This document shows, piece by piece, positions 1-20,164 of a stretch of 64,000 bases of DNA. The position numbers and the translations under genes are program-made. The stretch is from Escherichia coli (lineage in GTDB: Bacteria > Pseudomonadota > Gammaproteobacteria > Enterobacterales > Enterobacteriaceae), in assembly GCF_022846255.1 (NCBI RefSeq), contig NZ_AP025682.1; one strand, given 5' to 3'. The notes beneath the pieces were generated by a model, which was given only the letters and a program-made list of their open reading frames with translations, was not told the DNA's origin and searched no databases. Each line of letters begins with the position of its first letter. The first letter of the stretch is position 1.

Positions 1-1026
1 AGCCGGGTTATTGAGCGGCCCTTTTTTGTCGATGATGCGAATACAGGCTTCGTGGGTGCGAATGGTCACTTTTTCGATATCTGCCGCCGTTTTGCCTGCT
101 GCCTGCATCTGTTCATAGAGCGTCATCGCTGCTTCAACTGCCGTCTGGGAGTGGAACTCCGCCGGAAAGGAGATTTTGAACAGCACATTTTCCATGACGT
201 AAGAACCGTACGGACGCTGGAAGCGGAACGACTCACCTTTAAAGGAGACGTCGTAGAAACCCCACACCGGCGCGGTCAGAGCTGACGGGTAACCCATTTC
301 GCCCGTTTTCGCCATCAGCGCCAGACGTACCGCGCGGGACGTGGCATCGCCCGCCGCCCAGGATTTACGCGTACCGGTGTTCGGTGCATGACGATAAGTG
401 CGCAGCGACTGTCCGTCTACCCATGCCAGCGAAACGGCGTTGAGAATTTCCTCGCGGGTCAGGCCGAGCATTTCGGCGACCACGGCGGTGGAAGCCACTT
501 TCACTAACAGAACGTGGTCGAGACCAACGCGGTTAAAGGAGTTTTCCAGCGCGATGCAGCCCTGAATTTCATGGGCTTTGATCATTGCGGTCAGCACCTG
601 TTTCATGGTCAACGGCGCTTTGCCGCTGGCGATCGCGTTGCGCGAAAGCCAGTCCGCCGTTGCCAGAATGCCGCCGAGGTTGTCGGAAGGATGCCCCCAC
701 TCCGCCGCCAGCCAGGTATCGTTGAAATCGAGCCAACGGATCATCGCGCCAATGTTAAATGCCGCCTGGACGGGGTCGAGCTGAAACTGAGTTCCGGGAA
801 CGCGCACGCCGTTGGGTACGACGGTGCCGGGGACAATTGGCCCCAGCAGTTTTTTACAGGCCGGATATTCGAGAGCTTCCAGACCGCAGCCGAGCGTGTC
901 GAGCAGGCAGTAATGTGCGGTGTCGTAGGCTACTCTGGAGCTGATTTCGTAGTTCATCACGTAATCGACGATATCAACGATTTCACGATCAAATTCCGGG
1001 CGAATGTTGTTGATTTGAGCTGACAT
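1..1026 (-). CDS. prpD: 2-methylcitrate dehydratase, N-terminal part; gene runs off the window start
   Basis: Minus-strand translation from ATG at 1024-1026 reads [30 protein letters not shown]..., recognisable PrpD; position directly downstream of prpC; plus-strand ORFs in the track here are antisense artefacts. Confidence 0.9.
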
Positions 1027-1059
1027 TGGGTACGTTTCCTTATTGTTATTCGTAGAGGT

Positions 1060-2229
1060 TTACTGGCGCTTATCCAGCGCGACAAACTGGCGGTCTTCCG
1101 GTCCAACGTAATTGGCGGAAGGACGGATAATTTTGTTGTCCTGACGTTGTTCGATAATGTGCGCCGCCCAGCCAGTGACGCGGGCGATAACAAACAGTGG
1201 TGTGAACATCTCGGTGGGAACACCCATCATGTTGTAGGAAACAGCGGAGAACCAGTCGAGATTGGGGAACATCTTTTTGCTCTCCCACATCACTGTTTCC
1301 AGGCGATCGGCGATGTTGTACATCTTCAGCGAGCCGCCTTCCTGCGAGAGCTGCTTTGCCACGCGTTTGATCACCTGGTGGCGCGGGTCGGCGATGGTAT
1401 AAACCGGATGCCCAAAACCAATGACCACTTCTTTGTTTTCCACCCGCTTACGGATATCAGCTTCGGCTTCGCCCGGCGTTTCGTAGCGTTGCTGGATCTC
1501 CAGCGACACTTCATTCGCCCCGCCGTGTTTCGGCCCGCGCAGTGCGCCAATCGCGCCAATAATGGCGGAATACATATCAGAGCCAGTGCCCGCAATCACC
1601 CGGCTGGTAAAGGTGGAAGCGTTAAACTCGTGTTCGGCGTACAGCACCAGCGAGATATGCATCGCCTTTTCCCAGCTTTGCGACGGCTTTTCGCCGTGCA
1701 GCAGATGCAGGAAGTGACCGCCGATAGAGTCGTCATCAGTTTCCGGCTGGATGCGTTCGCCGTTGTGGCTGTAGTGATACCAGTAGAGAAGAATCGAACT
1801 AAGTGACGCCAGCAGTTTGTCGGCAATATCCCGCGCACCAGAAACAGTGTGCCCCTCTTTTTCTGGCAGCGTGCAGCCGAGCGCGGAAACGCCGGTGCGC
1901 ATAACATCCATCGGGTGTGACGCCGCCGGTAAGGCTTCCAGCACGGTACGCACGTTAGCCGGTAAACCACGCTGGGCTTTCAGTTTCGTTTTGTAGGCGG
2001 CGAGTTCGTCACGGGTTGGCAGTTTGCCGTGGATCAGCAGGTGCGCCACTTCTTCAAATTCACAATGTTCCGCCAGATCAAGAATATCGTAGCCACGGTA
2101 ATGCAGGTCGTTGCCGCTTTTACCCACGGTGCAGAGCGCCGTATTGCCCGCCGGAACGCCGGAAAGTGCCACCGATTTTTTCGGTTTAATGACATGGGTA
2201 CTGTTTTGCAGGATCGTTGTGTCGCTCAT
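1060..2229 (-). CDS. prpC: 2-methylcitrate synthase
   Basis: 389-aa ORF with citrate-synthase family sequence; prpBCD gene order. Confidence 0.95.
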
Positions 2230-2269
2230 ATTGTCCTCGTCATTGTTATCATTTGTAGGGTCGAGATTG

Positions 2270-2360
2270 TTGTCGGATGCGACGCTATGCGTCTTATCCG
2301 ACCTACAGTTCAGTTCACCTCGTAGGCCTGATAAGTCGCGTCAGCGGCGCATCAGGCATC
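2270..2360. repeat. REP/BIME-like palindromic units in prpB-prpC intergenic region
   Basis: GTCGGATGCGACGC...GCGTCTTATCCGACCTAC and GTAGGCCTGATAAGTCGCG...CGCATCAGGC motifs typical of enterobacterial REP sequences. Confidence 0.7.
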
Positions 2361-2388
2361 GGTTGTCGAATACAACCAACGGGCGTTT

Positions 2389-3279
2389 TTATTTCACCTG
2401 ACCACGGGCAAACAGGTCGTCGAGCTTCTCTTCGTACTGGTAGTAGTTGATGCTTTCGTACAGCTCGTTGCGGGTCTGCATGGTGTCGATGACGCTTTTC
2501 TGTGTGCCTTCCTGACGCAGGATGTTGTAGACATGTTCAGCGGCGCGGTTCATGGCGCGAAACGCTGAAAGCGGGTAGAGCGCCATTGCGACATGGGCGC
2601 TGCGTAATTCGTCGGTGGTAAACAGCGGTGTTGCGCCAAATTCGGTAATGTTGGCGAGGATCGGCACCTGCACCGCATCGGCAAACTGGCGATACATGGT
2701 GAGTTCGGTAATCGCCTCCGGGAACAGCATTTCGGCACCCGCTTCAACATAGGCCTCCGCTCGTTCGATTGCCGCATCCAGCCCCTCTACCGCCAGCGCA
2801 TCGGTGCGCGCCATGATCACAAAATCAGGATCGGTTTTCGCATCCACCGCCGCGCAGATCCGATCCACCATCTCTTCTTTCGAGACGATCGCTTTATTCG
2901 GACGATGACCGCAGCGTTTCGCACCAACCTGATCTTCAATATGCAATCCTGCCGCACCGGCTTTAATCATTGATTTCACCGTACGCGCCACGTTAAAGGC
3001 TGAAGAACCAAAACCGATATCCGCATCCACCAGCAGCGGCAGCGAACAAACGTCGGTAATACGGCGAATGTCAGTCAGCACATCATCAAGAGTAGAAATA
3101 CCGAGATCGGGCAGCCCCAGCGATCCTGCCGCCACGCCACCGCCGGAGAGATAAATCGCCTGATATCCGGCACGCTGCGCCAACAGCGCATGGTTGGCGT
3201 TAATGGTGCCAACAATTTGCAACGGGGTTTCTTTGCTAAGTGCAGCGCGAAACGCTTTACCTGGAGAGTGTAGAGACAT
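2389..3279 (-). CDS. prpB: 2-methylisocitrate lyase
   Basis: 296-aa ORF, PEP-mutase/isocitrate-lyase family sequence; upstream of prpC on the same strand. Confidence 0.95.
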
Positions 3280-3325
3280 AGCCCATCCTTTGTTATCAAC
3301 TTGTTATTTGCGTTGATAAACACAA

Positions 3326-3341
3326 AGCAAGGGGTGTGCCA
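3326..3341 (-). promoter_or_regulatory. sigma54 (-24/-12) promoter for prpBCD
   Basis: Minus strand reads TGGCAC-ACCCC-TTGCT, matching the TGGCAC-N5-TTGCW consensus, about 45 bp upstream of the prpB start; PrpR is a sigma54-dependent activator. Confidence 0.6.
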
Positions 3342-3505
3342 CAATTGACTGAATAAAATTAAATGTTTAATTTCAATGAGTTAAAGATAAATTCATGAAG
3401 TAATCCGCAAATATGCGTTTCAGTTAACGTTTCAGGCAATGTTTCACCGCGTTTCATTGCAACAATTATGAAACAAGGCTAAACCCAATATTCGGTTTCT
3501 TAACT

Positions 3506-5104
3506 TTGCGGTGCGCTATGGCACATCCACCACGGCTGAATGACGACAAACCGGTTATCTGGACGGTATCTGTAACGCGGCTGTTCGAGTTATTTCGCGA
3601 TATCAGCCTCGAGTTTGATCACCTGGCGAATATCACCCCTATCCAGCTTGGCTTTGAAAAAGCGGTGACCTACATCCGCAAGAAACTGGCAAACGAACGC
3701 TGCGACGCCATCATCGCTGCTGGCTCTAACGGCGCATATCTTAAAAGCCGCCTGTCAGTGCCAGTTATTTTGATTAAACCGAGCGGCTACGATGTGTTAC
3801 AGGCACTGGCAAAAGCCGGAAAACTCACCTCTTCTATCGGCGTTGTCACCTATCAGGAAACCATTCCAGCGCTGGTGGCGTTTCAAAAGACCTTTAATTT
3901 GCGCCTCGACCAACGTAGTTACATCACCGAAGAAGACGCCCGCGGGCAAATCAATGAGTTGAAAGCCAACGGCACCGAAGCGGTGGTCGGCGCGGGGCTG
4001 ATTACCGATCTGGCAGAAGAAGCCGGAATGACCGGAATTTTTATCTATTCCGCCGCCACCGTGCGCCAGGCGTTCAGCGATGCGCTGGATATGACGCGCA
4101 TGTCTCTACGGCATAACACTCACGATGCCACCCGCAACGCCCTGCGTACTCGTTACGTGCTGGGCGATATGCTCGGTCAATCACCACAGATGGAACAGGT
4201 GCGGCAGACTATTTTGCTGTATGCCCGCTCCAGTGCGGCGGTGTTGATTGAGGGGGAAACGGGGACGGGCAAAGAGCTGGCGGCCCAGGCGATTCATCGG
4301 GAATATTTTGCCCGCCACGATGCGCGACAGGGCAAAAAGTCACATCCGTTTGTTGCCGTCAACTGCGGGGCGATTGCCGAATCGCTGCTGGAAGCAGAGC
4401 TGTTTGGCTATGAGGAAGGGGCGTTCACCGGCTCGCGACGCGGAGGTCGCGCCGGGCTGTTCGAAATTGCCCACGGCGGTACGCTGTTTCTGGATGAGAT
4501 TGGCGAAATGCCGCTACCTTTGCAGACTCGCCTGTTACGGGTGCTGGAAGAAAAAGAGGTCACCCGCGTCGGCGGGCATCAGCCTGTTCCGGTGGATGTG
4601 CGGGTCATTAGCGCCACTCACTGCAATCTGGAAGAAGATATGCAGCAAGGGCAGTTTCGCCGTGACCTGTTTTATCGGCTGAGTATTTTACGCCTGCAAC
4701 TGCCGCCGCTACGCGAGCGGGTGGCGGATATTCTGCCGCTGGCGGAAAGCTTTTTGAAAGTGTCTCTGGCGGCGCTCTCCGCCCCGTTTTCTGCCGCATT
4801 ACGCCAGGGGTTACAGGCAAGTGAAACTGTGCTGCTGCGCTACGACTGGCCGGGCAATATTCGAGAACTGCGCAATATGATGGAGCGACTGGCGCTGTTT
4901 TTAAGTGTGGAACCGACGCCGGATTTAACGCCGCAATTTTTGCAGCTGCTACTGCCGGAACTGGCACGCAAGTCGGCGAAGACTCCCATTCCAGGCTTGC
5001 TGACAGCACAACAGGCACTGGAGAAATTTAATGGCGATAAGACAGCAGCGGCGAATTATTTAGGTATCAGCCGAACGACGTTCTGGCGGCGGCTGAAAAG
5101 CTGA
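3506..5104 (+). CDS. prpR: sigma54-dependent transcriptional activator of propionate catabolism (true start possibly at 3518, MAHPPRLN...)
   Basis: 532-aa ORF with AAA+ sigma54-interaction motifs ([13 protein letters not shown]) and C-terminal HTH; divergent from prpB. Confidence 0.9.
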
Positions 5105-5204
5105 ACTGCCGAATGCAGCGCGAACGCTTTATCCGGCATAAATTTCAATAGATGATGATCACCGATAAACTTACGCATCGGGGATGTTTACATAGGATTC
5201 AGAA

Positions 5205-6563: not shown

Positions 6564-7184
6564 CGAGGCCTCGAACCCCGTACCATACAACAATCCTGGT
6601 TGTCGTCTGCTCTTCCTGATGAGCTAATGGCGGTTTTTGATATGAGCCTTACAACATATTTTCTGTCAGGCTTGAGTGCGATGCGTAAGATACAGAAAAG
6701 ACCCCACACAAACATGATGGAATTATGATTTTTTTCATATGAATGTCAACCCACACATTCACAAAACATCTGTATGAGAACATTTTTTATACACCATATA
6801 GCTGCGAAACCACTACTGGTGCTTTTTTAAGCGAAACTCCGCCGTTCACAACAAAATATCGGCGAAAAAGGAGGGGGAATGCCATTTGGCATACAGATAC
6901 ACAGATGAAATGATGACCTGCTTTGCGATTCACTCTCTGGTGGAATAACAACTTGCAGGTGGCTCTCTTAAATAAAAATAAACGTCGCAGATAATAAAGC
7001 TCTGATTAAACCATACACTATCAGAAATCGCTCATAACTAACGTGTAAAGTAGTGGAGTTAATTTAACAATCTGAATTTACGCTATAGGTTTACCACTAC
7101 TTTGATATTATTTCGCTCTCCTTAACTAAAAAGTTAAGTGGAGCGAAGTTAATATGTTAAACCACAGGATGTTTATTAATTTTT

Positions 7185-8234
7185 TCAGTCTGTTAGTGTG
7201 CGATTATCGATAACAAAACGATATTTCACATCACCACGCAGCATTCGCTCATAGGCTTCATTAATTTGATCGGCCCGAATCATCTCTATATCAGCCACGA
7301 TGCCATGTTCGGCGCAAAAATCGAGCATCTCCTGAGTTTCTGGAATGCCGCCAATCATAGAACCAGCTATCGCGCGGCGTTTCATGATCAGGTTGAAAAC
7401 TTCCGGGGATTTATGCGGTGTCGCAGGCGCACCAACCAGCGTTATGGTGCCATCGCGCTTCAGCAAGGTGGTAAAATCGTCGAGATTATGTGGCGCAGCT
7501 ACTGTATTCAAAATGAAATCGAAACTCTTCACATGAGCCGCCATCTCATCGGCATTGCGTGAGTTAACAACTTCATCGGCCCCCAGGGCTTTTGCCGCTT
7601 CGCGTTTTGACTCAGAAGTGGTAAATGCCACCACATGCGCCCCCATCGCGTGGGCCAGTTTAATCCCCATATGTCCCAGACCGCCGATGCCGACCACGCC
7701 CACTTTTTTACCCGGCCCGGCCTGCCAGTGGCGTAGCGGCGAGTACGTGGTGATTCCTGCACACAATAAAGGAGCCACCGCCGCCAGCTGCTCTTGCGGG
7801 TGACGAATACGCAGAACATATCGCTCATGAACGACGATCTGTTGTGAGTAGCCGCCCAGAGTATGGCCCGGTTCATCCGGTGTCGGCGAGTTATAGGTTC
7901 CGGTCATGTGATCACAGTAGTTTTCCAGCCCATCTTCACACTCTTCGCAATGTTTACAACTGTCGACAATGCAGCCGACACCAACCAGATCGCCCGGCGC
8001 ATGTTTTTCTACCTGATCACCAACGGCTACCACGCGCCCCACAATTTCATGACCCGGCACGCAGGGGTAAACCGTCCCCGCCCACTCCGAACGGACCTGG
8101 TGGAGATCGGAATGGCAGACGCCACAGTAAGCGATTTCGATTTTGACATCATGCGGTCCCGGTTCACGCCGGGTGATATCCATCGGTTCAAGGGGTTGTT
8201 TAGCGGAATATGCACCAACAGCTTTGATCTTCAT
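7185..8234 (-). CDS. yahK: NADPH-dependent aldehyde reductase, zinc-containing alcohol dehydrogenase family
   Basis: 349-aa ORF with GHEIVG zinc-ADH motif and GIGGLG Rossmann motif. Confidence 0.9.
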   Translation of the reverse strand: MKIKAVGAYSAKQPLEPMDITRREPGPHDVKIEIAYCGVCHSDLHQVRSEWAGTVYPCVPGHEIVGRVVAVGDQVEKHAPGDLVGVGCIVDSCKHCEECEDGLENYCDHMTGTYNSPTPDEPGHTLGGYSQQIVVHERYVLRIRHPQEQLAAVAPLLCAGITTYSPLRHWQAGPGKKVGVVGIGGLGHMGIKLAHAMGAHVVAFTTSESKREAAKALGADEVVNSRNADEMAAHVKSFDFILNTVAAPHNLDDFTTLLKRDGTITLVGAPATPHKSPEVFNLIMKRRAIAGSMIGGIPETQEMLDFCAEHGIVADIEMIRADQINEAYERMLRGDVKYRFVIDNRTLTD

Positions 8235-8320
8235 TGTGTTTACTCCTGATTAGCTATGTGTATTTGGCGATGCCTGATATGTCATCGCGGCAAAACGCGT
8301 CCATTGAATATAGCCAATAT

Positions 8321-9277
8321 TTAAACCACCCGATCCAGCCCCAACATGCCGCGAGCCTGAATGAAACAGAGCAGCAACGTTCCCCATAAGGCCATCGTCA
8401 GGTAGGGGCTTATACCGAGAATATTGAAGCCGCTTTCAATAATTTGCAGAAGAAACAGCGCCAGCACCATACCAATTATCCGCCCGCTGCCGCCGTCCGG
8501 ATTAACCCCGCCGAGTACTGCCGCGAGGATTGACACCAGCAAGTACGATTCGCCATAAGAGGCCTTAGCCGAGTTGAGTTTCGACATCATCAAAAATGCC
8601 GCTACCGCACAAAGCAAGGCGGAAATGACATACACCCATATCAGCACCCGACGAGTGTTAATACCGGAGTAAAGTGTTGCTCGTTCGTTAGAACCAATCA
8701 GATAAATGGCTTTACCGAGCGGCGTTTTCTCCAGCAATATCCACAGCCCCAGCGCCACTGCGGTAAACAACCACATCGGTAGCGGAATACCGAACCACTG
8801 TGCATGATTCAACCACAGCACCCATGAGGGATAATTGGCAATGGCGCTACCGCCTGTCACCAGAATATTTACCCCTTTGAGCAACGTCATCATCCCAAGC
8901 GTTGCAAGAATTGGCGACACTCGAATACCAGCAATCAATACGCCGTTACATAAACCGATTATCACCGCCGCGCCAGCGCCTGCCAGTAACGTAGCGACAA
9001 CCGTAGCAATACCCGGTGGATACTGAGTCGCCACCCACGCCATCACCAGTGAACAGGCGTTAGCAGTGGCTATAATTGACAAGTTAATGCCACCGCAAAG
9101 CATGGTCACCGCCATAGCCAACGCCAGAATGCCCAGCACGGGCATTTGCGAAGCGACGGACTGGAAATTACTTATCGACCAGAAAATCTCCGGCATAGTA
9201 ATGCTGAAGGCGGCAACAGTTAGCACCAGCAGGCCGATCAAGTAAAACTCAACGTTATTACGCCACGATTTTTTCAT
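8321..9277 (-). CDS. ABC transporter permease (RbsC/LsrD-like); start taken at MKKSW, ORF extends to 9307
   Basis: Highly hydrophobic 318-328 aa ORF; 4-bp overlap with upstream permease. Confidence 0.8.
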   Translation of the reverse strand: MKKSWRNNVEFYLIGLLVLTVAAFSITMPEIFWSISNFQSVASQMPVLGILALAMAVTMLCGGINLSIIATANACSLVMAWVATQYPPGIATVVATLLAGAGAAVIIGLCNGVLIAGIRVSPILATLGMMTLLKGVNILVTGGSAIANYPSWVLWLNHAQWFGIPLPMWLFTAVALGLWILLEKTPLGKAIYLIGSNERATLYSGINTRRVLIWVYVISALLCAVAAFLMMSKLNSAKASYGESYLLVSILAAVLGGVNPDGGSGRIIGMVLALFLLQIIESGFNILGISPYLTMALWGTLLLCFIQARGMLGLDRVV

Positions 9278-10245
9278 AGCAGACTCCGGTTCTGATGCTG
9301 ACTCCACGCCGTGGCGCTAATGCTGGCAACGATGATGATGCCAGTGATCAATGTTTGCCAGTAAGACGAGACTCCCAATAAATTTAGCCCGTTTTGCATC
9401 ACTGCCAACAACACCACGCCGAGCAAAGTACCGGTTAACGTGCCGCGCCCGCCGAGCAAACTAGTGCCGCCAAGCACCACCGCAGCCAGTACTGTCAGCT
9501 CATAACCCAGAAGAGAATCGGGGGCGACAGTCATCACCGTCCACGACTGCACTACACCCGCAGCACCAGACATCAATCCCATATAGCCATAGACGAAAAG
9601 TTGCAGTTTCAGCACACTAAAGCCGATGCGACTGGCTGATTCGCGGTTCCCGCCAAGGGCATAAATTTTGCGCCCTACACTGGTGAAATTCATGATAAAC
9701 GCTGTTAGCAGCACCACCGTAATCATGGCGATCAGCGGTAGACCAAGGCCATAGTCATAGCCATCAGCATCGGTGTACTTGAACAACATAACCCCCTGCT
9801 CAAACCACGGCGGAAAGTCGTACAGCCACACACCTTTACTCAACCATAACAGCAGGCCATAGAAAATATTCAGCGTCGAGATAGTGATGATGATAGAAGG
9901 CACCCGTAGGCGATTAACCAGTAAGGCGTTAATTAAGCCAAGTAAAATGCCGATGCCGCCCGCCAGTGCAAACGCGACAGCAAAGTTACCACCCATTTTT
10001 TGCAGCAACAGCACCATGCCGTATTGCGCAATGATGGTCATTGCTGGAAACGAAATATCAATTCCACCGGAAATCAACACCACAAACAAACCACAGGCGA
10101 GAATAGTCAACATGGCATAGTTATTGGCGAGATCGTACAAATTACCGAATGTCAGAAACTCGTCGCTGCGCCAGGCAAGGCCGACAAACAGCCCCACAAT
10201 CAGTAATGCCAGCCAGAATTCATGACGTTTTTTCAGTTCAGCCAT
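9274..10245 (-). CDS. ABC transporter permease (RbsC/LsrC-like)
   Basis: 323-aa hydrophobic ORF; overlaps the ATPase gene by 8 bp. Confidence 0.8.
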   Translation of the reverse strand: MAELKKRHEFWLALLIVGLFVGLAWRSDEFLTFGNLYDLANNYAMLTILACGLFVVLISGGIDISFPAMTIIAQYGMVLLLQKMGGNFAVAFALAGGIGILLGLINALLVNRLRVPSIIITISTLNIFYGLLLWLSKGVWLYDFPPWFEQGVMLFKYTDADGYDYGLGLPLIAMITVVLLTAFIMNFTSVGRKIYALGGNRESASRIGFSVLKLQLFVYGYMGLMSGAAGVVQSWTVMTVAPDSLLGYELTVLAAVVLGGTSLLGGRGTLTGTLLGVVLLAVMQNGLNLLGVSSYWQTLITGIIIVASISATAWSQHQNRSLL

Positions 10246-11737
10246 TTACCACCTCCGCAATCCTGGCCTGAGAACTGCTGTCAGGCAGGAAGCTATGGGT
10301 GATCTGACCTTTTTGCATTACCAAAATCCGGTGGCTTTGATACCACGCTTCTTCAATTTCATCGCAGATCATCAATACCGCAATGCCATGAGCCGCCAGA
10401 TCGCTGATAATGCCGTATATTCCTGCTTTGTTGGCGATATCAACACCGACTGTCGGGCTATCGAGAATCAACAGTCGTGGCCCAATCGCCAGCCATTTGG
10501 CGATCGATACTCGCTGCGCGTTACCACCAGAAAGCGTATTCACCGGGAGATGTGGGTCAGAGACTTTGATGGTCAATGCCTTGATTAGCCTGTCCACCAG
10601 GTCACGCACTTTAGCTTCACTCAGAAAGCCGAAGCGATCTTTTACCTTGTGAAAAACAGTGCTAATGATGTTGTCTTCAATAGATTGCGCCATCACCAAA
10701 CCGCGCGACATGCGATCTTCCGAAACATAACCAATACCGTGGCGGATGGCGTCCTGGTTACTATGCAGTGTAACCGGCTGACCGTTGATGAGGATCTCGC
10801 CAGCATCCGGTCGGGTCATACCAAACAGACTCAGACATAATTCCGTGCGCCCCGCACCAAGCAGGCCAATAATCGACACCACTTCGCCCGCTTCCACCCG
10901 CAAGTTAATATTTTGATATTCCCCATGACGACTTAAATTACGCACCTCCAGCACTGGGATGCTGGATTTTCCCTGCCACAACTCTCGTACCTGATATTCA
11001 AACTCCTGGCCGGTCATCAGGAAACCGAGTTGTTTTGTGGTCATCTCTGCAGCCGGAAAGGTCCCGACCAGCTCACCATCTTTCAGCACTGAAATACGGT
11101 CGGAAACTTCCATCACCTCTTCCAGACGATGACTGACGAAGACCACGCAGATCCCGCGTTCCCGCAATTGATGCACCACCTGTAATAACCCTTGCACTTC
11201 CTGATGGGTCAGCGAAGCGGTTGGTTCATCCATCACAATCAACCGTGCGTCCTGCGCCAGTGCACGGCAAATTGCCACCAGCTGACAGCGGGCAATTGAA
11301 AGCTCAGAAACGAGCGTATCCAGTGGCAATGTGACGTTAACACTGGTCATTGCCGCCTGCGCCACCTCACGCAGACGACGTCGGTTAACAAACAGACCGT
11401 GGTGATAGTGATTCACGGCGATATTCTCCCAGACACTCAGGTTAGGAAATAAAGAGAGGTCCTGATAAATCACCTGAATCCCCTGCGCCACCGAAGCGGC
11501 GGGTGTCAGCTTTGACCAGTTTTTCCCACCAAGCGTAATTTCCGCTCCCTCATCCGGGCGATAAACACCGGACATAATTTTAATCAACGTCGATTTACCA
11601 CAGCCGTTTTGCCCGGCAAGGCAGTGCACTTCACCCGACATAAAGTCGAGAGAAACATCGCGCAGCGCTCGCGTGGCATGAAACGTTTTGTTGATATGAC
11701 GAAGGGAAAGGAAGGTTTCCATAACATCCCCTGGCAA
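10238..11737 (-). CDS. sugar ABC transporter ATP-binding protein with duplicated ABC domains (RbsA/LsrA-like)
   Basis: Two Walker A motifs (GQNGCGKST, GLLGAGRTE) and signature-like LSGGNAQR in one 499-aa ORF. Confidence 0.9.
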   Translation of the reverse strand: MPGDVMETFLSLRHINKTFHATRALRDVSLDFMSGEVHCLAGQNGCGKSTLIKIMSGVYRPDEGAEITLGGKNWSKLTPAASVAQGIQVIYQDLSLFPNLSVWENIAVNHYHHGLFVNRRRLREVAQAAMTSVNVTLPLDTLVSELSIARCQLVAICRALAQDARLIVMDEPTASLTHQEVQGLLQVVHQLRERGICVVFVSHRLEEVMEVSDRISVLKDGELVGTFPAAEMTTKQLGFLMTGQEFEYQVRELWQGKSSIPVLEVRNLSRHGEYQNINLRVEAGEVVSIIGLLGAGRTELCLSLFGMTRPDAGEILINGQPVTLHSNQDAIRHGIGYVSEDRMSRGLVMAQSIEDNIISTVFHKVKDRFGFLSEAKVRDLVDRLIKALTIKVSDPHLPVNTLSGGNAQRVSIAKWLAIGPRLLILDSPTVGVDIANKAGIYGIISDLAAHGIAVLMICDEIEEAWYQSHRILVMQKGQITHSFLPDSSSQARIAEVVNG

Positions 11738-11770
11738 TAAGAATCGGGGCTTTCGCCCCGAAGAAATGGA

Positions 11771-12757
11771 TTAATAAAGTGAGTCGATATTGTCTTTGTT
11801 GACCAGTAATACCTTATGGAAACGGATAATTCGCTTATCCATATCTACGTCGGCCTTCCCCAGATTCTGCATTTCTAATCCAGGTTTGATCTCTTCACCC
11901 TTCAGCAACGTGCTGGCGACGGCTGCGAGTGCGTAACCTGCAGAGGCCGGATCGTAAGTAATCCCTTCGGTGATATCACCACTTTTAATCAGTGATGCCG
12001 CCTGTGAAGGAATCATCATGCCATAGACTGCGACTTTATTTTTCGCCCGTTTCTCTTTCACTGCACGTCCCGCGCCAATCGGACCGTTTGAACCAAAGGA
12101 GACAACCGCTTTCAAGTCAGGATAGGTTTTCATCAGGTCCAGTGTGGTACGACGTGAGTCATCCACACTCTCGGCAACCGGCATGCGGCGGGTAACTTCA
12201 TGCATATCCGGGTAATGCTCTTTCTGGTATTTCACCAGCAAGTCAGCCCATAAGTTATGCTGCGGCACGGTCAAACTACCCACGTAAATCACATAGCCGC
12301 CCTTGCCACCCATGCGTTTCGCCATATGTTCAACATATTCAGCGGCAAATTTTTCGTTATCAATGATTTCGATATCCCAGTTAGCACTTAGCTGACCGGG
12401 GGATTCGTTGGTCAGAACCACAATTCCGGCATCTCGCGCTTTTTTGAATACCGGTTCCAGCACGTTGGCATCGTTTGGCACAATTGTAATTGCATTAACC
12501 TTACGGGCGATTAAATCCTCAATAATTTTAACTTGTTGCGGAGCATCAGTACTTGAAGGCCCCACCTGTGACGCATTAACACCAAAGGCTTTACCCGCCT
12601 CAACCACACCTTCGCCCATGCGATTAAACCACGGCATACCATCGACTTTAGAGATATTCACCACGACTTTTTCCGCTGCCTGGAGCGGCGCAGAAATTAG
12701 CGCAGCGCCTAATAACAGCGAAGACACCATATTGATAACAAAACGTTTATTCATCAT
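11771..12757 (-). CDS. periplasmic substrate-binding protein, type I sugar-binding fold (LsrB/RbsB-like)
   Basis: 328-aa ORF with signal peptide and PBP-type motifs; first gene of the ABC operon. Confidence 0.8.
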   Translation of the reverse strand: MMNKRFVINMVSSLLLGAALISAPLQAAEKVVVNISKVDGMPWFNRMGEGVVEAGKAFGVNASQVGPSSTDAPQQVKIIEDLIARKVNAITIVPNDANVLEPVFKKARDAGIVVLTNESPGQLSANWDIEIIDNEKFAAEYVEHMAKRMGGKGGYVIYVGSLTVPQHNLWADLLVKYQKEHYPDMHEVTRRMPVAESVDDSRRTTLDLMKTYPDLKAVVSFGSNGPIGAGRAVKEKRAKNKVAVYGMMIPSQAASLIKSGDITEGITYDPASAGYALAAVASTLLKGEEIKPGLEMQNLGKADVDMDKRIIRFHKVLLVNKDNIDSLY

Positions 12758-13007
12758 TTCAGCCTCATTGCAGGGTAGTCAGGAAGTGTTCGCCCAAATT
12801 AGCGCGCTGGAGAGAATAAGAATTTTCGAATATTTTTATGCAGAATAAACAGCCCTATTTCAGGCAGCTATTAAAAATTTGGTTATAAATATGGACAAAA
12901 CGGGCAGCAACAATAAGTGTGATAATCATCACGTAAAAAACAGCAAAATAAACAAAATTAGCGATACTTTATGTTTGTGAGCTTATTTCGCGTAGAAAAA
13001 TAGTTAT

Positions 13008-13418
13008 CTACACAACGTCAATAAGGGCATATTCTTCAAAGATAACGTCCATTTCGGGTGAATAGCATCCTTCTGCCTGGAAAAAACGACGGTGTTCATT
13101 ACGCCAATATTCAAGACTGAGGTCACCTTCACCTTCCTTACGGGCAAGCTCTGCGGTGACATCAGAAAAGCGCAGTAAATGCAGGCCAATCACTCTGATA
13201 ACACAGACAGGCTCACCACGGCTATTTTCTACAATCTTATACTCACCAATCAGCGGAAATGCGTTGTCTTCAATACATCCCGCCAGCGAACCACAGGAAG
13301 CTGTTTTAACACCAGTCGCAATCAACGTTGCGAGGTGATCGGCCAACGCTGCTGAATCGCCAAAAGTACAAAAGGAAGCATGGGGATATTTTTGTGAGAT
13401 TTTTTCTTTTATGGTCAT
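13008..13418 (-). CDS. ASCH/PUA-like domain protein (possible acyl-nucleoside amidohydrolase-like); ORF extends to 13448
   Basis: 136-146 aa ORF between the ABC importer and yahJ; assignment by my recollection of the ASCH fold, not verified. Confidence 0.4.
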   Translation of the reverse strand: MTIKEKISQKYPHASFCTFGDSAALADHLATLIATGVKTASCGSLAGCIEDNAFPLIGEYKIVENSRGEPVCVIRVIGLHLLRFSDVTAELARKEGEGDLSLEYWRNEHRRFFQAEGCYSPEMDVIFEEYALIDVV

Positions 13419-13717
13419 GAGAATATTTTCGCGATTACGGAAAAACAAATCACATCTTAATTACTGTTGATAACCATCAGCAAGAAGATCATTGGTTTTT
13501 CGATGCTTAATCTTTTTTATCCGAAGCAGGTCACATTTATGGCTTGATAAATATCTTTGTTAAAACTCACTTTTGTGTATTTCTCTCAAATAATCCCCTG
13601 GAAATTACGCCCGGAGATTATAAAGTTCAGGATCATTCATTAGCAAACCATTGCTGCCCCACTCCCTGGGGCTTTAAATCTCTTACTGTTCACCATTGCA
13701 GGCGTTTCAAATGCGTA

Positions 13718-15100
13718 TCAACCTGCCACGCTCCCCCACACCAGTTGCCCTTTATGGAACGTTGCGGTTCTCGGCGAGATACGCGCCACCGCCTCGGCGG
13801 AACAGGAGGCGTCCACCAGCACAAAGCTGGCGTCATCCTGCGCTTTAGGCCACACGCGCTCGCCTTTTTCGTTGAGCGGCAATACATCGCCAGTGGCTAA
13901 AAACAGCGAGCGGGAGAGGTTCTGTTCGTTAGGACGAATATAGAGCTGCGCGTACAGATTGGCTTTTTCCAGCATGTCGCCCAGGCCGTAAGGCGACCAG
14001 TGGTCGATAACGCTGTCGGTGCCGGTCATCACTTTTACGCCTTTGTCGTGCAACTGTTTGAGCGGCATATGCAGCGTGCCAATCGGTACCGTCGAGGCGA
14101 TAGAAATTTGCTGCGCCGCCATCCGGTGCGCCAGTTCATCTACCTGTTGTTCGTTGAGCGTTGCCAGCGCGAAGGCGTGGCTGATGGTCAGCTTGCCCTT
14201 CAGCTGTGGCGTTTTCTCTACCGTTTCAACCATATAATTGATGGCTGCCACGCCTGCCGGAGTGGTTTCGTGCAGGTGAATATCGACGCCTTTGTCGTAG
14301 TCCAGCGCAATCTGGAACATGGTGTCGAGGGATTTTTCCATCGCGCCATCGACACTGGTCGGGTCCAGCCCGCCGACGTAATGCGCGCCCGCCTGCATTG
14401 CTTCACGCATTAAAGGTTCCGATTTCGACAGCAGCAAACCGTGCTGCGGGAAGGCGACAATTTCACACTCGAAGCCCGCCTGACGTCGCGCCAGCACCGA
14501 CTGCAAATTTTGCAGATTTTTCAGGCCGGAAACCGGTTCGATATTGCAGTGGCTGCGGGCAATGGTGGTGCCTTTTGACTGCAATAAATCGATCAGTTTT
14601 TCCGCCCGTTCCTGAGTATATGGTTGCAGCTCCGGCAGCATTTTCTGCTCGAGTTTGATCATGTCCTGGATAGTGGTGCCTGCCGGACGATTGAGCGAGC
14701 GCCACGGCCCGCCGTAGAAGGTTTTATCGAGATGAATATGCATGTCGCGGGTGGTGGGCAGCATCAGCTTACCGCCAGCGTCATAGTGCGGCAGCGTGGC
14801 GTCCGGATGCTGCTTGTTCTCGCGCAGGGCAACAATTTTACCGTCCTGAATCTCCACGGTCTGGCGCGCCGTGCGGGTCTGTACCGCCACGCCATTTTCG
14901 TAGTCAAAACCGGTTTCCAGCAGCACGTTATCGAGATAGTAATGCGGGTCAGTGATTTTCATGGTGTTGTTCGCTTCGCAGTTTAGGGTGCCAGCTACCC
15001 CCGCATGGGCGAGCGGCACTGAGGGACCAAACAGCGCGGCGGCGGTAACCATCTTACCGCTCTGGCTCAGAAATTCACGGCGGCTATTGTTTTCTTTCAT
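13718..15100 (-). CDS. yahJ: Tat-exported amidohydrolase-superfamily deaminase
   Basis: 460-aa ORF with twin-arginine-like N-terminus (SRREFLSQSG) and HxH metal-binding motifs of amidohydrolases. Confidence 0.85.
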   Translation of the reverse strand: MKENNSRREFLSQSGKMVTAAALFGPSVPLAHAGVAGTLNCEANNTMKITDPHYYLDNVLLETGFDYENGVAVQTRTARQTVEIQDGKIVALRENKQHPDATLPHYDAGGKLMLPTTRDMHIHLDKTFYGGPWRSLNRPAGTTIQDMIKLEQKMLPELQPYTQERAEKLIDLLQSKGTTIARSHCNIEPVSGLKNLQNLQSVLARRQAGFECEIVAFPQHGLLLSKSEPLMREAMQAGAHYVGGLDPTSVDGAMEKSLDTMFQIALDYDKGVDIHLHETTPAGVAAINYMVETVEKTPQLKGKLTISHAFALATLNEQQVDELAHRMAAQQISIASTVPIGTLHMPLKQLHDKGVKVMTGTDSVIDHWSPYGLGDMLEKANLYAQLYIRPNEQNLSRSLFLATGDVLPLNEKGERVWPKAQDDASFVLVDASCSAEAVARISPRTATFHKGQLVWGSVAG

Positions 15101-15109
15101 CTTACGTCC

Positions 15110-16060
15110 TTAGGTTTTAATAATATGGGTGCCCGTTTCGCCGCGTAGCGCCGCAGGCAGGCATTCCGGCGTGGTGATAATCACTTCTTTGCCGCCTTGT
15201 TCCAGGAACGTCAGGCTGGCGATGATTTTTGGCAACATGCTGCCAGGTGGGAAATGCCCTTCCTGCATATAGCGGGTCATGGTGGCAATATCTACGCGAT
15301 CCAGCGCCTGCTGCTGCGGTTTGCCAAAGTGAATACACACTTTTTCGACGCCAGTGGTGATCACCAGAATGTCGGCGTGAATTTCGCGAGCCAGTAGCGC
15401 GGTAGAGAAATCTTTGTCGATAACCGCGTCCACGCTTTGGTAATCCCCCGCGTCAGTACGCACTACCGGAATTCCGCCGCCGCCCGCGCCAATCACCACA
15501 AAGCCTTGTTGGATCAGCGCCTTAATGGCAGGTGCTTCGACAATACGTTTCGGTTCCGGCGAGGCGACCACGCGGCGATAGCCCCGTCCGGCATCTTCAA
15601 CAAAACGCCAGTCAGGGTTTGCCTTTTGTAGTTCGTCACGCTGGCTTTCATTAAAGAATGCGCCAATGGGTTTGGTGGGATGAGCAAAACCCGGATCGTT
15701 TTTATCCACTTCCACCTGGGTCACCACGGTGACGGCTTTTTTCTCGCCATGACGCGCCAGTCGGTTGTTCAGCGCCTGCTGGATCAGATAGCCAATGCCA
15801 CCTTGCGTATCCGCCACACAGTTCGCCAGCGGCGTTAAGGGCAGCCCTTCGCGCTCGTGGGCAATCTCCGCGCGGCGTAAATCCAGCCCGACCTGCGGCC
15901 CGTTGCCGTGGGTCAGCACAATGTCGTAATCGGAAGCCAGCATTTCCAGCACCGTATCGGCCACGGCTTTCACCGCCTCCGCCTGATGCTCAATCGACTG
16001 GCTGGCGTTATCTTTGATAATGCTGTTGCCACCAATGGCAACGACCACAAGTTCTTTCAT
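15110..16060 (-). CDS. yahI: carbamate kinase paralogue
   Basis: 316-aa ORF beginning MKELVVVAIGGNSI..., carbamate kinase/amino-acid kinase family. Confidence 0.9.
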   Translation of the reverse strand: MKELVVVAIGGNSIIKDNASQSIEHQAEAVKAVADTVLEMLASDYDIVLTHGNGPQVGLDLRRAEIAHEREGLPLTPLANCVADTQGGIGYLIQQALNNRLARHGEKKAVTVVTQVEVDKNDPGFAHPTKPIGAFFNESQRDELQKANPDWRFVEDAGRGYRRVVASPEPKRIVEAPAIKALIQQGFVVIGAGGGGIPVVRTDAGDYQSVDAVIDKDFSTALLAREIHADILVITTGVEKVCIHFGKPQQQALDRVDIATMTRYMQEGHFPPGSMLPKIIASLTFLEQGGKEVIITTPECLPAALRGETGTHIIKT

Positions 16061-16104
16061 GTTGTTATGTCCGCGACAGAGGGTGATGGGGTTATGACCA
16101 ACGC

Positions 16105-16285
16105 CAGACTGCCTGATGCGCTACGCTTATCAGGCCTACAGATTCTTGCGCCACTCGTAGGCCGGATAAGGCGTTCACGCCGCATCCGGCTGTGGTGGCC
16201 AATGCCTGAAGCGCCACGCTTATCAGGCCTACAGATTTCCGCGCCATTCGTAGGCCGGATAAGGCGTTCACGCCGCATCCGGCAG
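16105..16285. repeat. cluster of REP (BIME) palindromic units
   Basis: Two near-identical copies of CTTATCAGGCCTACAGATT...CGTAGGCCGGATAAGGCGTTCACGCCGCATCCGGC between yahG stop and yahI start. Confidence 0.8.
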
Positions 16286-16306
16286 AAACAACGCGCACTT
16301 TACAGA

Positions 16307-17725
16307 TCAGACGCCGTAACGTTCGCACCAGCCAAAAATGGCTTTCTCGAAGCAGGCGAAGGGTGGATGCACAATGCCCGCGCCAATCATGCCGACGCCC
16401 GCATCTTTATGGGCGATGGCGGTGTTGATCACTGGCAGAATGCCGCTGCTACCCACGCGGGTGATGTCGATTGCCGACGGAACGCCCATAAAACCGAGCA
16501 GCGGAATGGTGACGTTGGGGTTTTCGCCAAGGGTGATTTCACGCATCTGACGGGAGAAATCGATAGCCTCTTCCACCGTGCCACCCACCAGCGCGACGAT
16601 CGCGGGCGCGGTCGCCATCGCAAATCCGCCGATACCGTAGGTTTCGGTGATGGCGCTGTCGCCAATATCCAGCCCTGAATCTTCCGGCTTATAACCGGCA
16701 AACATCGGGCCGATGACCTGCTGCGCCGGGCCGGTAAACCACTGCCCCGGCAGGCCGCTGACCCGCAGGCCGAACTCGACGCCGTTACGCGCCATGGTGG
16801 TCACCACGGTGCTGTATTCGATGCCGTGCGCCGCATCCATCGCCGCTTTACACATCGCCATCCACGTCGGGCCGGAGAAGTAGTCGCTGCTGGCGACAAA
16901 CTCAAACACTTCGCGCTGTTGCTCGACGGAATAACCTGCCTGAATAATCCCCGGCGTCAGCGCCTGAATCAGCAGCGTCGTCCCGGCGTTATTGCGGTTA
17001 TGGCATTCATCGCCCATATGCAGCGCCTGCGCCAGCATTAAGCGCAGATCGATTTCGCCGATAATTTTCATCGCGTCGCGCAGCATGGGTCCCTGCACAT
17101 CGCGCATCCAGTTGAGGCGGTCGATCACGCTCTGGTCGTTAGCGCCCATACGCAAAATCTTCGCCATCTGCTCGCTCATGTTGGTATAAGCGACGTTGCC
17201 ATAGGTTTTGTTTTTCACGATGTGCATAAACATCGAGGCCGAGGTGACGCCCGCCATCGATCCCACACAGTCGTGCTCGTGGCACGGCGAGAAGGTGATC
17301 TCCCCGGAAGCCGCCAGCTCAGCCGCCTCGTCGAGATCTTTCGCCAGTCCTTCAAACACCAGCGCTCCGGTGACCGCGCCTTTCATCGCGCCGCACATTT
17401 TTTCCCAGGTGACCGGCGGCCCGGCGTGAAGAATGGTTTTCGGCGTCATGCCCGGCACCACGTTAATCGCCTGATCAAAACCAATCAGCACCGGATGCGA
17501 CTGGATAATGCGCTCCAGCGCCTGCTGGTTAGCGGCGGTGATTTTGTCCGCCAGCGGCGAATCGGCAATGTTGTCCAGTGCCTGCACCACCTGCATATTG
17601 CCCTGCCCCGGCGGCGTCCAGTCGAGTTGGGTCACTTCTACATGCTGCTTTTTCAGATCATCGCTAAACATGGCGATACCGACGTTAATAACGTTCAACG
17701 GTTGGCTAAACAGTGACTGGCTCAT
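16307..17725 (-). CDS. yahG: DUF1116 protein, YlbE paralogue
   Basis: 472-aa ORF in conserved yahEFG order. Confidence 0.8.
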   Translation of the reverse strand: MSQSLFSQPLNVINVGIAMFSDDLKKQHVEVTQLDWTPPGQGNMQVVQALDNIADSPLADKITAANQQALERIIQSHPVLIGFDQAINVVPGMTPKTILHAGPPVTWEKMCGAMKGAVTGALVFEGLAKDLDEAAELAASGEITFSPCHEHDCVGSMAGVTSASMFMHIVKNKTYGNVAYTNMSEQMAKILRMGANDQSVIDRLNWMRDVQGPMLRDAMKIIGEIDLRLMLAQALHMGDECHNRNNAGTTLLIQALTPGIIQAGYSVEQQREVFEFVASSDYFSGPTWMAMCKAAMDAAHGIEYSTVVTTMARNGVEFGLRVSGLPGQWFTGPAQQVIGPMFAGYKPEDSGLDIGDSAITETYGIGGFAMATAPAIVALVGGTVEEAIDFSRQMREITLGENPNVTIPLLGFMGVPSAIDITRVGSSGILPVINTAIAHKDAGVGMIGAGIVHPPFACFEKAIFGWCERYGV

Positions 17726-19272
17726 CAGGCTTCCTCCCCTTTGCAGATAAATTCACGCGCCAGCAATCCGGTATTGGTGCTGCTGCTCGCCAGAATCACT
17801 CCGGCATCAAGCAGCATCTGGCTTTGTTGTTCTAATGATGGCGTATCGAGATCGGTGCCCAGCACATAGGCGAGAATGATCAACTCGCGTCCTTCGGCAG
17901 CGGCGATCGCTTTCGCTTCTTTGATCGCCTCGATGGTGGAACCGACCGGATCTTCATGCGATCCAAATCCGAGCACAAAATCCATCACGATCACCGCCAC
18001 TTCTGGATCGCGCGCTTCTTCGATCAAGCGGCTGATACGGTTGGTCGGGTCAATCATTGGATGCGGCTTGCCGTTGGTGAAGTCATCATCGCCAAAATCG
18101 AGGAAGGTGTGTTTGATGCTGCGGTTGATATCTTGCAGGCGGAATTCAGGATCGGGCTGGATATTGCTGTAGACATCGCCATGTTTTTCCATCACCGCGA
18201 ACAGGGTTTCGTCACACAGCGTACCGCCGCAGAACAGACCACGAATGTATTTCTGCTGCGGTTGCAGACGCGCACGCACATCCGCAATCAACGGCTGGTT
18301 AAGCGTATGCAGGTCGAGATGTTCTTGTTTCACGCCGGAGAGCATCACCGCTTTCAATGCCGCCTCTTTGCTGCCGCGAGCAAACTGTAGCCCCTGCTCA
18401 TCCACTGGCGTTTCGCCACGACCGAGGAAGCAGGCCACCACTGGCTTGCGGCAGGCGCGTGCGCGTTCCAGCACTTTGCGGGCCACCGCAGGCGCAGGCG
18501 GTTTGGAGATAAGCACAATGATTTCAGTTTGCGGATCGTTTTCCAGCATCCCGATGGCATCGAGCATCATCAGGCCACCGATTTTCTCGCTCAGGTCGCG
18601 CCCGCCGGTGCCGATCAGTTGTGAAACGCCGCCACCAAATTCATGGATACGGACGCTCAATTCCTGGCTGCCGGTGCCAGATGCGCCAACAATACCGATG
18701 TTGCCGCGACGCACGGCGTTACCAAAGCAGAGCGCCGCGCCGTTGATAATCGCCGTGCCGCAGTCTGGCCCCATCATCAGCAGCCCTTTTTCATGGGCCA
18801 ACTGTTTGAGCGCCAGTTCATCTTCAACTGAGACATTATCGGAAAACAGCATCACGTTGAGGTCATTTTGCAGCGCCTGACGCGCTTCGCGAGCGGCAAA
18901 CAGACCGTTGACCGAAATCACTGCCAGGTTACTTTCCGGGATATGCTTTTTGGCGCTGGCAATAGTGCCGTAACGCGCCTCGTGCGAGCCGCTTTGCGCT
19001 TTGGTGTTGAACAGTTCTTCAATCTCCGCCAGCAACTGCTCGTTGTCCACACCCGATTTACCATTGATGACAATCATCAGGTCGCCGTTTTTCGCCTGCT
19101 CCAGCTCCGGCGTCAGCAGTCCTAAATTCTTCAACACGCCTTTGTTCATTTCGGTCGCCATCGCCACAAATGCCTGCTCGACGCCGTCGAGTTTATTTGC
19201 ACGCGTGGAGATAGACATCAGCGAGACAGAATCAAAATAGGTATTCGGTTTAATGACTATTTTAACTGACAT
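17725..19272 (-). CDS. yahF: FdrA-like protein with succinyl-CoA-synthetase-alpha-type CoA-binding fold
   Basis: 515-aa ORF; 1-bp overlap with yahG and 11-bp overlap with yahE. Confidence 0.85.
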   Translation of the reverse strand: MSVKIVIKPNTYFDSVSLMSISTRANKLDGVEQAFVAMATEMNKGVLKNLGLLTPELEQAKNGDLMIVINGKSGVDNEQLLAEIEELFNTKAQSGSHEARYGTIASAKKHIPESNLAVISVNGLFAAREARQALQNDLNVMLFSDNVSVEDELALKQLAHEKGLLMMGPDCGTAIINGAALCFGNAVRRGNIGIVGASGTGSQELSVRIHEFGGGVSQLIGTGGRDLSEKIGGLMMLDAIGMLENDPQTEIIVLISKPPAPAVARKVLERARACRKPVVACFLGRGETPVDEQGLQFARGSKEAALKAVMLSGVKQEHLDLHTLNQPLIADVRARLQPQQKYIRGLFCGGTLCDETLFAVMEKHGDVYSNIQPDPEFRLQDINRSIKHTFLDFGDDDFTNGKPHPMIDPTNRISRLIEEARDPEVAVIVMDFVLGFGSHEDPVGSTIEAIKEAKAIAAAEGRELIILAYVLGTDLDTPSLEQQSQMLLDAGVILASSSTNTGLLAREFICKGEEA

Positions 19273-20125
19273 AATTCCCTCCGTAGGTTTGACTCAGCGC
19301 ACAACCATCGGCCATGCCATACAGCATGTCGCAGCCGGAACTGGAGCCAATATGTTTAATTTTTTCTATTGCCTGAGTTGCGTTCCCAGGGATGTCATAA
19401 ATAATGTTGTGAATAAAACGATGAATATTTTCCCGGCAGCGTTGTTGTAATGCGGCTTCCAGCGTGATGGCACTTAATAACGTGGTATTATTTCTGCCGC
19501 GTTGCAAACCGAGATAAAATTCCTCTTTGTATTTTTCCGCCGGATGTCCGGAAATAAATAAAATAAGTACCAGTCCGGTCAGATAATCATCGGCTGATGG
19601 CGTAAGGCCAATCCCTAAGCCCATCATACTGGCGACTGCTGAGGCGATATTTTGTTTATCGTTTACGGCCTGAATAACTGCCCGTCGTTTAATATGTAGT
19701 TCTTTATTTAACGCCTGATAAAACGGATTATCGCCGCGATAATTAAACAGGGTTTCATTTTCCCCCAGGTGCTGATGAATAATGTCGTGCCACTGTTGCC
19801 AGGCGATAAGGTGAAAATTCACAGCGGTCATTTGCAAGGTTGGGGACAGCCAACGCCGACAACGACTCATCTCTATATGAAGATGTTGACCAACCGTAAT
19901 GCCTTGATCGTCAAACTGAACCTTATCACCATGCCGGAACAGACCATTAAAGTGAGTGAGTGCCAACCGACAACTGTTTGGCGCATTGTCGTACTCTTCA
20001 CAAAGCAGCGTTAGCAACTGCTGGCGAGCCGGGAGTGCGATATTTACCGCTCTGGCAAAGACCTGTTCAACCTGTCCTTGCCCCCGCTGCGCCAGAAAAT
20101 CAGCATCCGCAGTTAGCGCCCACAC
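19262..20125 (-). CDS. yahE: DUF2877 protein, YlbF paralogue
   Basis: 287-aa ORF in conserved synteny. Confidence 0.75.
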   Translation of the reverse strand: MWALTADADFLAQRGQGQVEQVFARAVNIALPARQQLLTLLCEEYDNAPNSCRLALTHFNGLFRHGDKVQFDDQGITVGQHLHIEMSRCRRWLSPTLQMTAVNFHLIAWQQWHDIIHQHLGENETLFNYRGDNPFYQALNKELHIKRRAVIQAVNDKQNIASAVASMMGLGIGLTPSADDYLTGLVLILFISGHPAEKYKEEFYLGLQRGRNNTTLLSAITLEAALQQRCRENIHRFIHNIIYDIPGNATQAIEKIKHIGSSSGCDMLYGMADGCALSQTYGGNYVS

Positions 20126-20164
20126 ACACCGTTTTTCTGGTGTGTTGATAGCAAGCCTCCCGGT

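Follow-up and report, generated by a model that had tools for sequence, protein, structure and literature searches.

How does the repeat cluster between yahG and yahI bear on the genes around it? It might divide the yah genes into separate transcripts, encode a small protein, act on the chromosome itself, or adjust the RNA of a single operon. The window, that is, the whole stretch of 64,000 nucleotides of Escherichia coli DNA analyzed here, contains the prp-yah region, reversed relative to K-12. The genes in question all lie on the minus strand: yahJ (13718-15100), yahI (15110-16060), yahG (16307-17725), and yahF (17725-19272). The explanation that we favor as a whole, at a probability of roughly 0.6, is that the cluster is an allele of the K-12 element REP23, that it is non-coding, and that it tunes the yah mRNA within one operon.

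Between 13718 and 20125, YahG belongs to the Pfam family AllG (oxamate carbamoyltransferase subunit), YahF to the FdrA family, and YahI to the carbamate kinase family. Judged by these families, the yah cluster resembles a paralogous set of oxamate carbamoyltransferase and carbamate kinase genes, to which the amidohydrolase YahJ has been added. We know of no phenotype for the yah genes.

A REP array in the yahG-yahI spacer

REP units are defined as imperfect palindromes of 30 to 40 nt with a conserved GTAG at the foot (PMC3333891). We ran a REP consensus search over the window with a motif made up of the head GTAGGCCKGATAAG (at most 2 mismatches), a gap of 2 to 16 nt, and the tail GCATCMGGC (at most 1 mismatch). 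This mismatch-count scan returns exactly six palindromic units in the 64-kb window, of which four lie between yahG and yahI and the other two in the prpB-prpC spacer; ten shuffled versions of the window yield no unit. All six begin with GTAGG, measure 29 to 36 nt as delimited here, and are extragenic, lying in spacers between genes. A preliminary description of this DNA had placed a REP/BIME cluster at 16105-16285; these coordinates are right to within a few bases, and the cluster lies wholly inside the yahG-yahI spacer.

Four REP palindromic units fill this 246-nt spacer (16061-16306) and span 16111-16283. On the yah strand they follow one another in alternating orientation (Y-, Z2+, Y-, Z2+), forming two 93-nt tandem units. 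The yahG stop codon (16307-16309) is separated by 23 nt (16284-16306, minus strand) from the first Y-type unit (16250-16283, plus strand), which has its GTAG on the plus strand, so that the yah mRNA carries the complement. A 17-nt linker (16233-16249), lying between the Y and Z2 tails with their GTAG/CTAC ends, leads to a variant Z2-type unit (16204-16232, minus strand) with one T.T stem mismatch and a change in the loop. The two 93-nt units are joined by a short linker, TGTGGTGGCCAA plus the terminal base of Z2 (16191-16203). The second Y-type unit (16157-16190, plus strand) is identical to the first and is followed by the 17-nt linker of the second unit (16140-16156) and by a consensus copy of the Z2-type unit (16111-16139, minus strand). 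The last 50 nt (16061-16110, minus strand), which include the C-rich stretch CATAACCCCATCACCCTCTGTC, end at the ATG of yahI, whose start is at 16060; this spacer has a constant length of 50 nt in every repeat-bearing allele examined.

Independent repeat searches recover the same arrangement. Tandem Repeats Finder reports 16110-16283 with a period of 93 nt (1.9 copies, 92% matches, score of 306), and a repeat search finds two 81-nt copies within the array at 93% identity. In RNA of the yah strand, each of the four units folds into a stable hairpin of about -13 to -21 kcal/mol. In order of transcription, the values are -21.3 (z of -4.1), -13.4, -21.5, and -12.9 kcal/mol. The folded stems carry the irregularities of their types: the Y units have a mismatch inside the stem, and the Z2 units a bulge of 2 nt. 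The whole-spacer RNA fold, at -108.8 kcal/mol compared with -95 kcal/mol for shuffles (z of -2.95), is only moderately better than expected.

BIME-2 elements combine y and z2 units in inverse orientation, in multiple tandem copies whose number varies among strains (PMC3333891). The alternating Y/Z2 order, the 93-nt tandem period, and a copy number that differs among strains identify the yahG-yahI array as a BIME-2, and it is almost certainly the window strain's allele of K-12 REP23, the locus of the doubtful gene "yahH". The observation is thus correct but ordinary, since the array is already known under these names (REP23/yahH, BIME-2); a review of the E. coli y-ome words it as "yahH (filled with REP23 sites)" (PMC11551758). 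REP is the commonest hairpin repeat between the genes of E. coli, and the sequence is accordingly dispersed in the species: a 401-nt query around the array matches a median of at least 32 places per genome in 5425 of 5426 E. coli genomes.

Transcription across the array

As yahE, yahF, and yahG overlap mutually and yahI and yahJ are only 9 nt apart, the cluster has just one real gap, the yahG-yahI spacer. A consensus scan for terminator-like sites (a hairpin followed by a U run) on the minus strand finds none in 15000-17500 or in 12500-21600, and the sequence 3' of each array unit is linker without a T run. Similarly, a consensus scan detects no sigma-70-like promoter on the minus strand in the spacer or in all of yahD to yahJ, so that yahIJ appears dependent on read-through. 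We therefore rejected an intrinsic terminator in the spacer and, as far as a sigma-70 consensus scan can show, a separate promoter for yahI. In O157, sense transcription runs through the array, and yahDEFGIJ has been suggested as a possible operon (Neuhaus et al. 2016, PMC4765031). With no terminator-like site, no internal sigma-70-like promoter, and a single real gap, one yahDEFGIJ transcript is best supported, and the earlier proposal that the array partitions the yah cluster as a terminator finds no support in these results. Published supplements (the REP325 preprint, Term-seq, and a 3'-end-mapping paper) contain no REP23 3' end or Rho site among the entries listed; the DESeq base means among the entries listed are 104 for yahD, 33 for yahE, 151 for yahF, and 147 for yahG.

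We consider it an even proposition that the array serves yah expression as a stabilizer of the yahDEFG mRNA combined with a partial attenuator, a role that we propose by analogy with REP325. The array would be transcribed within one polycistronic yahDEFGIJ RNA, in which the four hairpins would block 3'-to-5' exonucleases and the yahDEFG part would consequently outlast the yahIJ part. The hairpins may add a modest, partly Rho-assisted attenuation of read-through into yahIJ, and the expected outcome would be yahDEFG expression above that of yahIJ, with no hard operon boundary. At REP325, located between yjdM and yjdN, deleting the array reduces yjdM mRNA and increases yjdN about 10-fold, an effect that depends partly on Rho, and across 146 REP-containing tandem gene pairs expression favors the upstream gene (bioRxiv 10.64898/2026.03.23.713779). 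The same study reports no detectable Rho dependence for REP325 fragments of 2 and 4 hairpins, and finds that REPs genome-wide do not lengthen mRNA half-lives and have strongly context-dependent effects. The proposal that REP arrays tune the expression of neighboring genes has already been published in general form.

The second REP element of the window bears on the same question. The preliminary description had noticed a REP pair at 2270-2360 in the prpB-prpC spacer, and the motif scan indeed places two units at 2272-2357. The first to be met by the prp mRNA is a Z1-like unit (2322-2357, plus strand; RNA hairpin of -16.3 kcal/mol), followed by a Y variant beginning GTAGGTCGGAT (2272-2306, minus strand; -19.2 kcal/mol). 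Together they make up one 93-nt-type unit of K-12 REP25, within the operon prpBCDE. The position of this pair inside the prp cluster supports the reading in which the yah array tunes rather than cuts. No sigma-70-like site was found in 1-4000 by the consensus scan. An exact sigma-54-type match, TGGCACACCCCTTGCT, is present at 3326-3341 on the minus strand. It precedes the prpB start codon by about 47 nt, as expected for the known PrpR-dependent promoter; over the whole window, sigma-54-type matches are no more numerous than chance predicts.

Could the array nevertheless be a true operon boundary, ending the yahDEFG transcript while yahIJ is transcribed separately? That it occupies the only large gap in the yah cluster, that expression is about 10-fold lower downstream of REP325, and that some REPs coincide with intrinsic terminators would fit such a boundary. 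However, none of the units is followed by a U run, the minus strand has no terminator-like site in the region scanned, and yahI has no sigma-70-like promoter of its own. Further, sense transcription and ribosome footprints cross the array of O157, for which the operon yahDEFGIJ was suggested (PMC4765031), and the equivalent prpB-prpC array is internal to the prp cluster, where the only promoter-like match found is the sigma-54-type site upstream of prpB. On this evidence we regard a boundary as very improbable, and we retain the reading of one transcript modulated by its hairpins.

Two further features of the prp-yah region were noted beside these. A degenerate single Y-like unit, GCCGAATGCAGCGCGAACGCTTTATCCGGC, lies at 5106-5138 (plus strand), 2 nt after the prpR stop codon, with an RNA fold of -13.9 kcal/mol. 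It comes from a permissive Rfam scan, occupies the position of K-12 REP24, and does not appear in the preliminary description. The REP23 and REP25 arrays differ in unit types and linkers, and in each the repeat length is exactly 93 nt, or 31 codons.

The distance between yahG and the array differs among alleles, with 23 nt between the stop codon and the first unit in the window compared with 13 nt of different sequence in K-12-type alleles. Ribosome stalling by a REP reportedly requires the REP to lie within about 15 nt of the stop codon, as Liang et al. are said to have described in 2015. Stalling of this kind may apply to K-12-type alleles, and it probably does not operate in the allele of the window.

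Downstream of yahJ, the preliminary description had joined yahIJ, the ABC genes, and yahK into one transcript. This grouping has no support: the ABC genes are an accessory insertion, and an ASCH-domain ORF and a promoter-like site stand between them and yahJ. The stretch 8321-13448, between yahJ and yahK, holds a sugar ABC transporter operon (binding protein, 11771-12757; ATPase, 10238-11737; permeases, 9274-10245 and 8321-9307) and, next to yahJ, the ASCH-domain ORF (13008-13448). Just downstream of yahJ, a sigma-70-like site at 13617-13646 on the minus strand (TTGCTA, 18 nt, TATAAT; 10 of 12 matches) could, by its sequence, start ASCH/ABC transcription independently of yahIJ. The ABC genes and the ASCH-domain ORF are absent from K-12 and also from strain Combat2C1, although the repeat allele of Combat2C1 is identical to that of the window. 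Positions 7000-16400 are covered over at least 80% in about 2200 of the 5426 genomes, and no full-length match exceeds 98.7% identity, a pattern suggestive of mosaicism at this locus.

Unit number and reading frames across E. coli

To compare alleles, complete E. coli genomes were searched with the two yahG-yahI flanks only, and representative loci were read; unit counts per genome were derived from the match span in a rank-spread sample of 57 genomes. Alleles with 0, 1, 2, 3, 4, and 5 Y-Z2 units were read directly in other strains. No unit is present in 7 of the 57 genomes (the allele type of O166:H15), and a single unit in 25 (SCU-176 and LR1). Two units, as in the window, Combat2C1, and OV2, occur in 3 of the 57, three units in 1 (UPEC957C), four in 15 (K-12), and five in 6 (O157). 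The allele of Combat2C1 is 100% identical to that of the window over 401 nt around the array. The window allele equals the SCU-176 allele with one extra 93-nt unit, and this extra unit, characterized by the Z2 stem mismatch and the linker TTGGCCACCACA, is present twice in UPEC957C, pointing to amplification in place. Recombination or slippage between the 93-nt units would shift the unit number and give rise to the alleles of 0 to 5.

Two of the alleles call for separate description. The laboratory strain OV2 (NZ_CP195020.1, 339920-340895) retains K-12 units 1 and 4 only; this strain is apparently of K-12 descent, and the change would amount to a two-unit loss of 186 nt on the timescale of laboratory culture, provided that the repeat was not collapsed in the assembly. 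The repeat-free allele has a 65-nt sequence that is single-copy in 655 of 5426 genomes (about 12%) and contains an 11-bp hairpin (CCCTTCTCCC...GGGGAGAGGG). In O166:H15 JNE21-009, a unique segment of about 50 nt substitutes for the array and its immediate flanks, so that this is not a simple empty site. Another dispersed repeat in this allele was considered and rejected, given that the 65-nt sequence is single-copy in the 655 genomes.

We tallied the variation among 13 distinct units from seven alleles, a small sample. Variable sites make up 13 of 29 linker positions compared with 8 of 64 positions in the palindromic units (Fisher p=0.001; 13 units), and 4 of the 8 variable sites in the palindromic units make up two pairs of compensatory changes in the inner stem of Y. 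Over the codon positions of the YahH frame, the 21 variable sites are distributed 6/8/7, with no third-position excess. From these patterns we judge that the array behaves as a structured non-coding repeat, varying in a way unlike a protein.

The main rival to a regulatory role is that the array is a neutral passenger. In this view the REP-associated transposase or slippage during replication seeded and amplified it, its unit number drifts, and it has no selected effect on yah expression. A neutral repeat would also be expected to show alleles of 0 to 5 units at the same site, the replacement of the array by unique non-repeat sequence in about 12% of genomes, and the apparent loss of two units in OV2; the lack of Rho dependence of short REP fragments and of any general REP effect on half-life points the same way. 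However, the palindromic units show much stronger conservation than the linkers, their stem changes are compensatory, and REP-containing tandem gene pairs across the genome show upstream-biased expression. The first of these objections is limited, as unit conservation could instead reflect the needs of repeat propagation rather than yah regulation. We regard neutrality as less likely than tuning, of which it is the strongest competitor.

If the array does tune the yah mRNA, its unit number (0 to 5) might act as a heritable, quickly mutable dial of the ratio of the transferase-like subunits YahEFG to the YahI kinase and the YahJ amidohydrolase, an idea that we hold to be rather doubtful. Were it true, lineages would differ in flux through the yah pathway with no changes in coding sequences or promoters. 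The natural series of 0- to 5-unit alleles at one locus offers a test bed for the tuning of neighboring genes by REPs.

The array is also crossed by three open reading frames, which the preliminary description had called artefactual. All three exist. A 78-aa ORF (16092-16328, minus strand) is in the frame that RefSeq names YahH in K-12 and O157, and a 73-aa ORF starting MRRERLIRP (16057-16278, minus strand) is in the frame of X002/"yahH" of Neuhaus et al.; two overlapping frames on the same strand thus both bear the name YahH, that of RefSeq reading VNALSGL/MAQESVGL and that of Neuhaus et al. MRRERLIRP. The third, a 256-aa ORF (15908-16678, plus strand), runs antisense to yahI, the array, and yahG; it has no family match, and we judge it to be an artefact. 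The array sits in the middle of this ORF, not at its start as had been described. Across the 174-nt core of the array, three of the six frames contain no stop codon; together with the missing codon-position bias and the compensatory stem changes, this indicates that the ORFs are most readily understood as by-products of a repeat free of stops, in agreement with the original suspicion.

We weighed against this the proposal that the array encodes a true small repeat protein, YahH, the locus being an element of DNA, RNA, and protein with a "triple function" (Neuhaus et al. 2016). In O157 EDL933, ribosome footprints cover a 465-nt ORF with an RPKM of 56 and a ribosomal coverage value of 0.64 (PMC4765031), the YahH protein is still annotated by RefSeq in K-12 and O157, and a 93-nt unit corresponds to 31 codons, so that the reading frame survives the gain or loss of units. 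However, different sources give the name to two different frames, and the ORF is missing wherever the array is missing, in about 12% of genomes, its length following the number of units. One-base deletions in K-12 and O157 shift the frame of the array ORF, the ORFs over the array match no Pfam family, and no mass-spectrometry peptide is listed for X002 (PMC4765031). The footprint reads were mapped with Bowtie defaults (PMC4765031), and the repeat occurs at about 30 or more places per genome; misassigned reads or RNase-resistant hairpins could therefore lie behind the footprints. Given also the codon-position tally, we rejected a protein-coding yahH, which we consider extremely improbable.

The main value of the finding lies in annotation. 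The three ORFs over 16057-16678, both "YahH" frames included, should not be called genes, and the yahG-yahI and prpB-prpC spacers deserve repeat features, as homologues of REP23 and REP25, in addition to the degenerate REP24 at 5106-5138.

Comparison with known repeat and RNA elements

Of all Rfam families, only naRNA4 (RF02564), which describes a Y-linker-Z unit, reaches its gathering score in the window. It matches 16160-16229 on the plus strand with 64.1 bits (gathering score, 59.5; E=5e-9). Of the array linkers, which are 17 and 12 nt long, the 12-nt linker aligns to the linker of this model. The yah sense strand scores 47.8 bits against the same model, under the gathering score. A separate naRNA4 gene at the array was rejected, as the repeat alone accounts for the match, which runs antisense to the operon. 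A weak sigma-70-like site at 15994-16021 (plus strand, 9 of 12 matches) lies inside the 5' end of yahI and points into the array; it is the one plus-strand promoter-like site seen near the array, compared with 1.1 expected by chance, and is probably meaningless.

This match raises the possibility that the array acts mainly at the level of DNA or the nucleoid, either as a gyrase-binding BIME-2 or through an HU-bound naRNA4-like RNA. Reports cited in PMC3333891 and PMC4765031 describe binding of gyrase, Pol I, and IHF to BIMEs, HU is bound by naRNA4 in vitro, and the match to the array exceeds the gathering score. Opposed to this are the orientation of the above-threshold match, antisense to the yah genes, and the chance-level frequency of plus-strand promoter-like sites near the array. 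Moreover, the REP325 study disputes a role of naRNA4 in nucleoid compaction (bioRxiv 10.64898/2026.03.23.713779): nucleoid size is unchanged by REP325 deletion or overexpression, and REP-REP contacts were not found. We consider such a principal role improbable; it is compatible with the tuning of yah mRNA and does not exclude it.

Set beside known elements, the hairpins of the array share with intrinsic terminators the G+C-rich stem-loops at the 3' end of a gene, and differ from them in having no U run, which in terminators follows the stem. The REP325/naRNA4 array is closer, as it too consists of alternating tandem Y/Z2 units between genes of the same orientation. It has, however, 12 hairpins compared with 4 in the window, and its Rho dependence, itself partial, appeared only when all 12 were present. 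Unlike in REP325, the match in the Rfam orientation is antisense to the operon in the window.

The prpB-prpC pair differs from the yahG-yahI array in its unit types, combining a Z1-like unit with the GTAGGTCGGAT variant of Y in place of Y and Z2. With K-12 REP25 it shares the two unit types, the 15-nt linker, and the flanks, but REP25 has four 93-nt units and the window one. The pair resembles BIME-1 in joining a unit of Z1 length to a Y-like unit in inverse orientation. BIME-1, in contrast, has a long linker with an IHF site and is single-copy, whereas the prp element has a 15-nt linker and is amplified four-fold in tandem in K-12. By the definitions of PMC3333891, the short linker and the tandem amplification make the prp element an atypical BIME rather than a BIME-1.

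The yahG-yahI array is set apart from BIME-1 by its Z2 units, which take the place of Z1, and its closest counterpart is K-12 REP23 itself. The array of the window and REP23 of MG1655 agree in genomic position, in the order and orientation of the Y and Z2 units, in the 93-nt period, and in the 50-nt spacer before yahI. They differ in size, with 4 units, 8 hairpins, and a 421-nt spacer in MG1655 compared with 2 units, 4 hairpins, and 246 nt in the window, and in the one Z2 unit with a stem mismatch that, unlike K-12 REP23, the array of the window carries.
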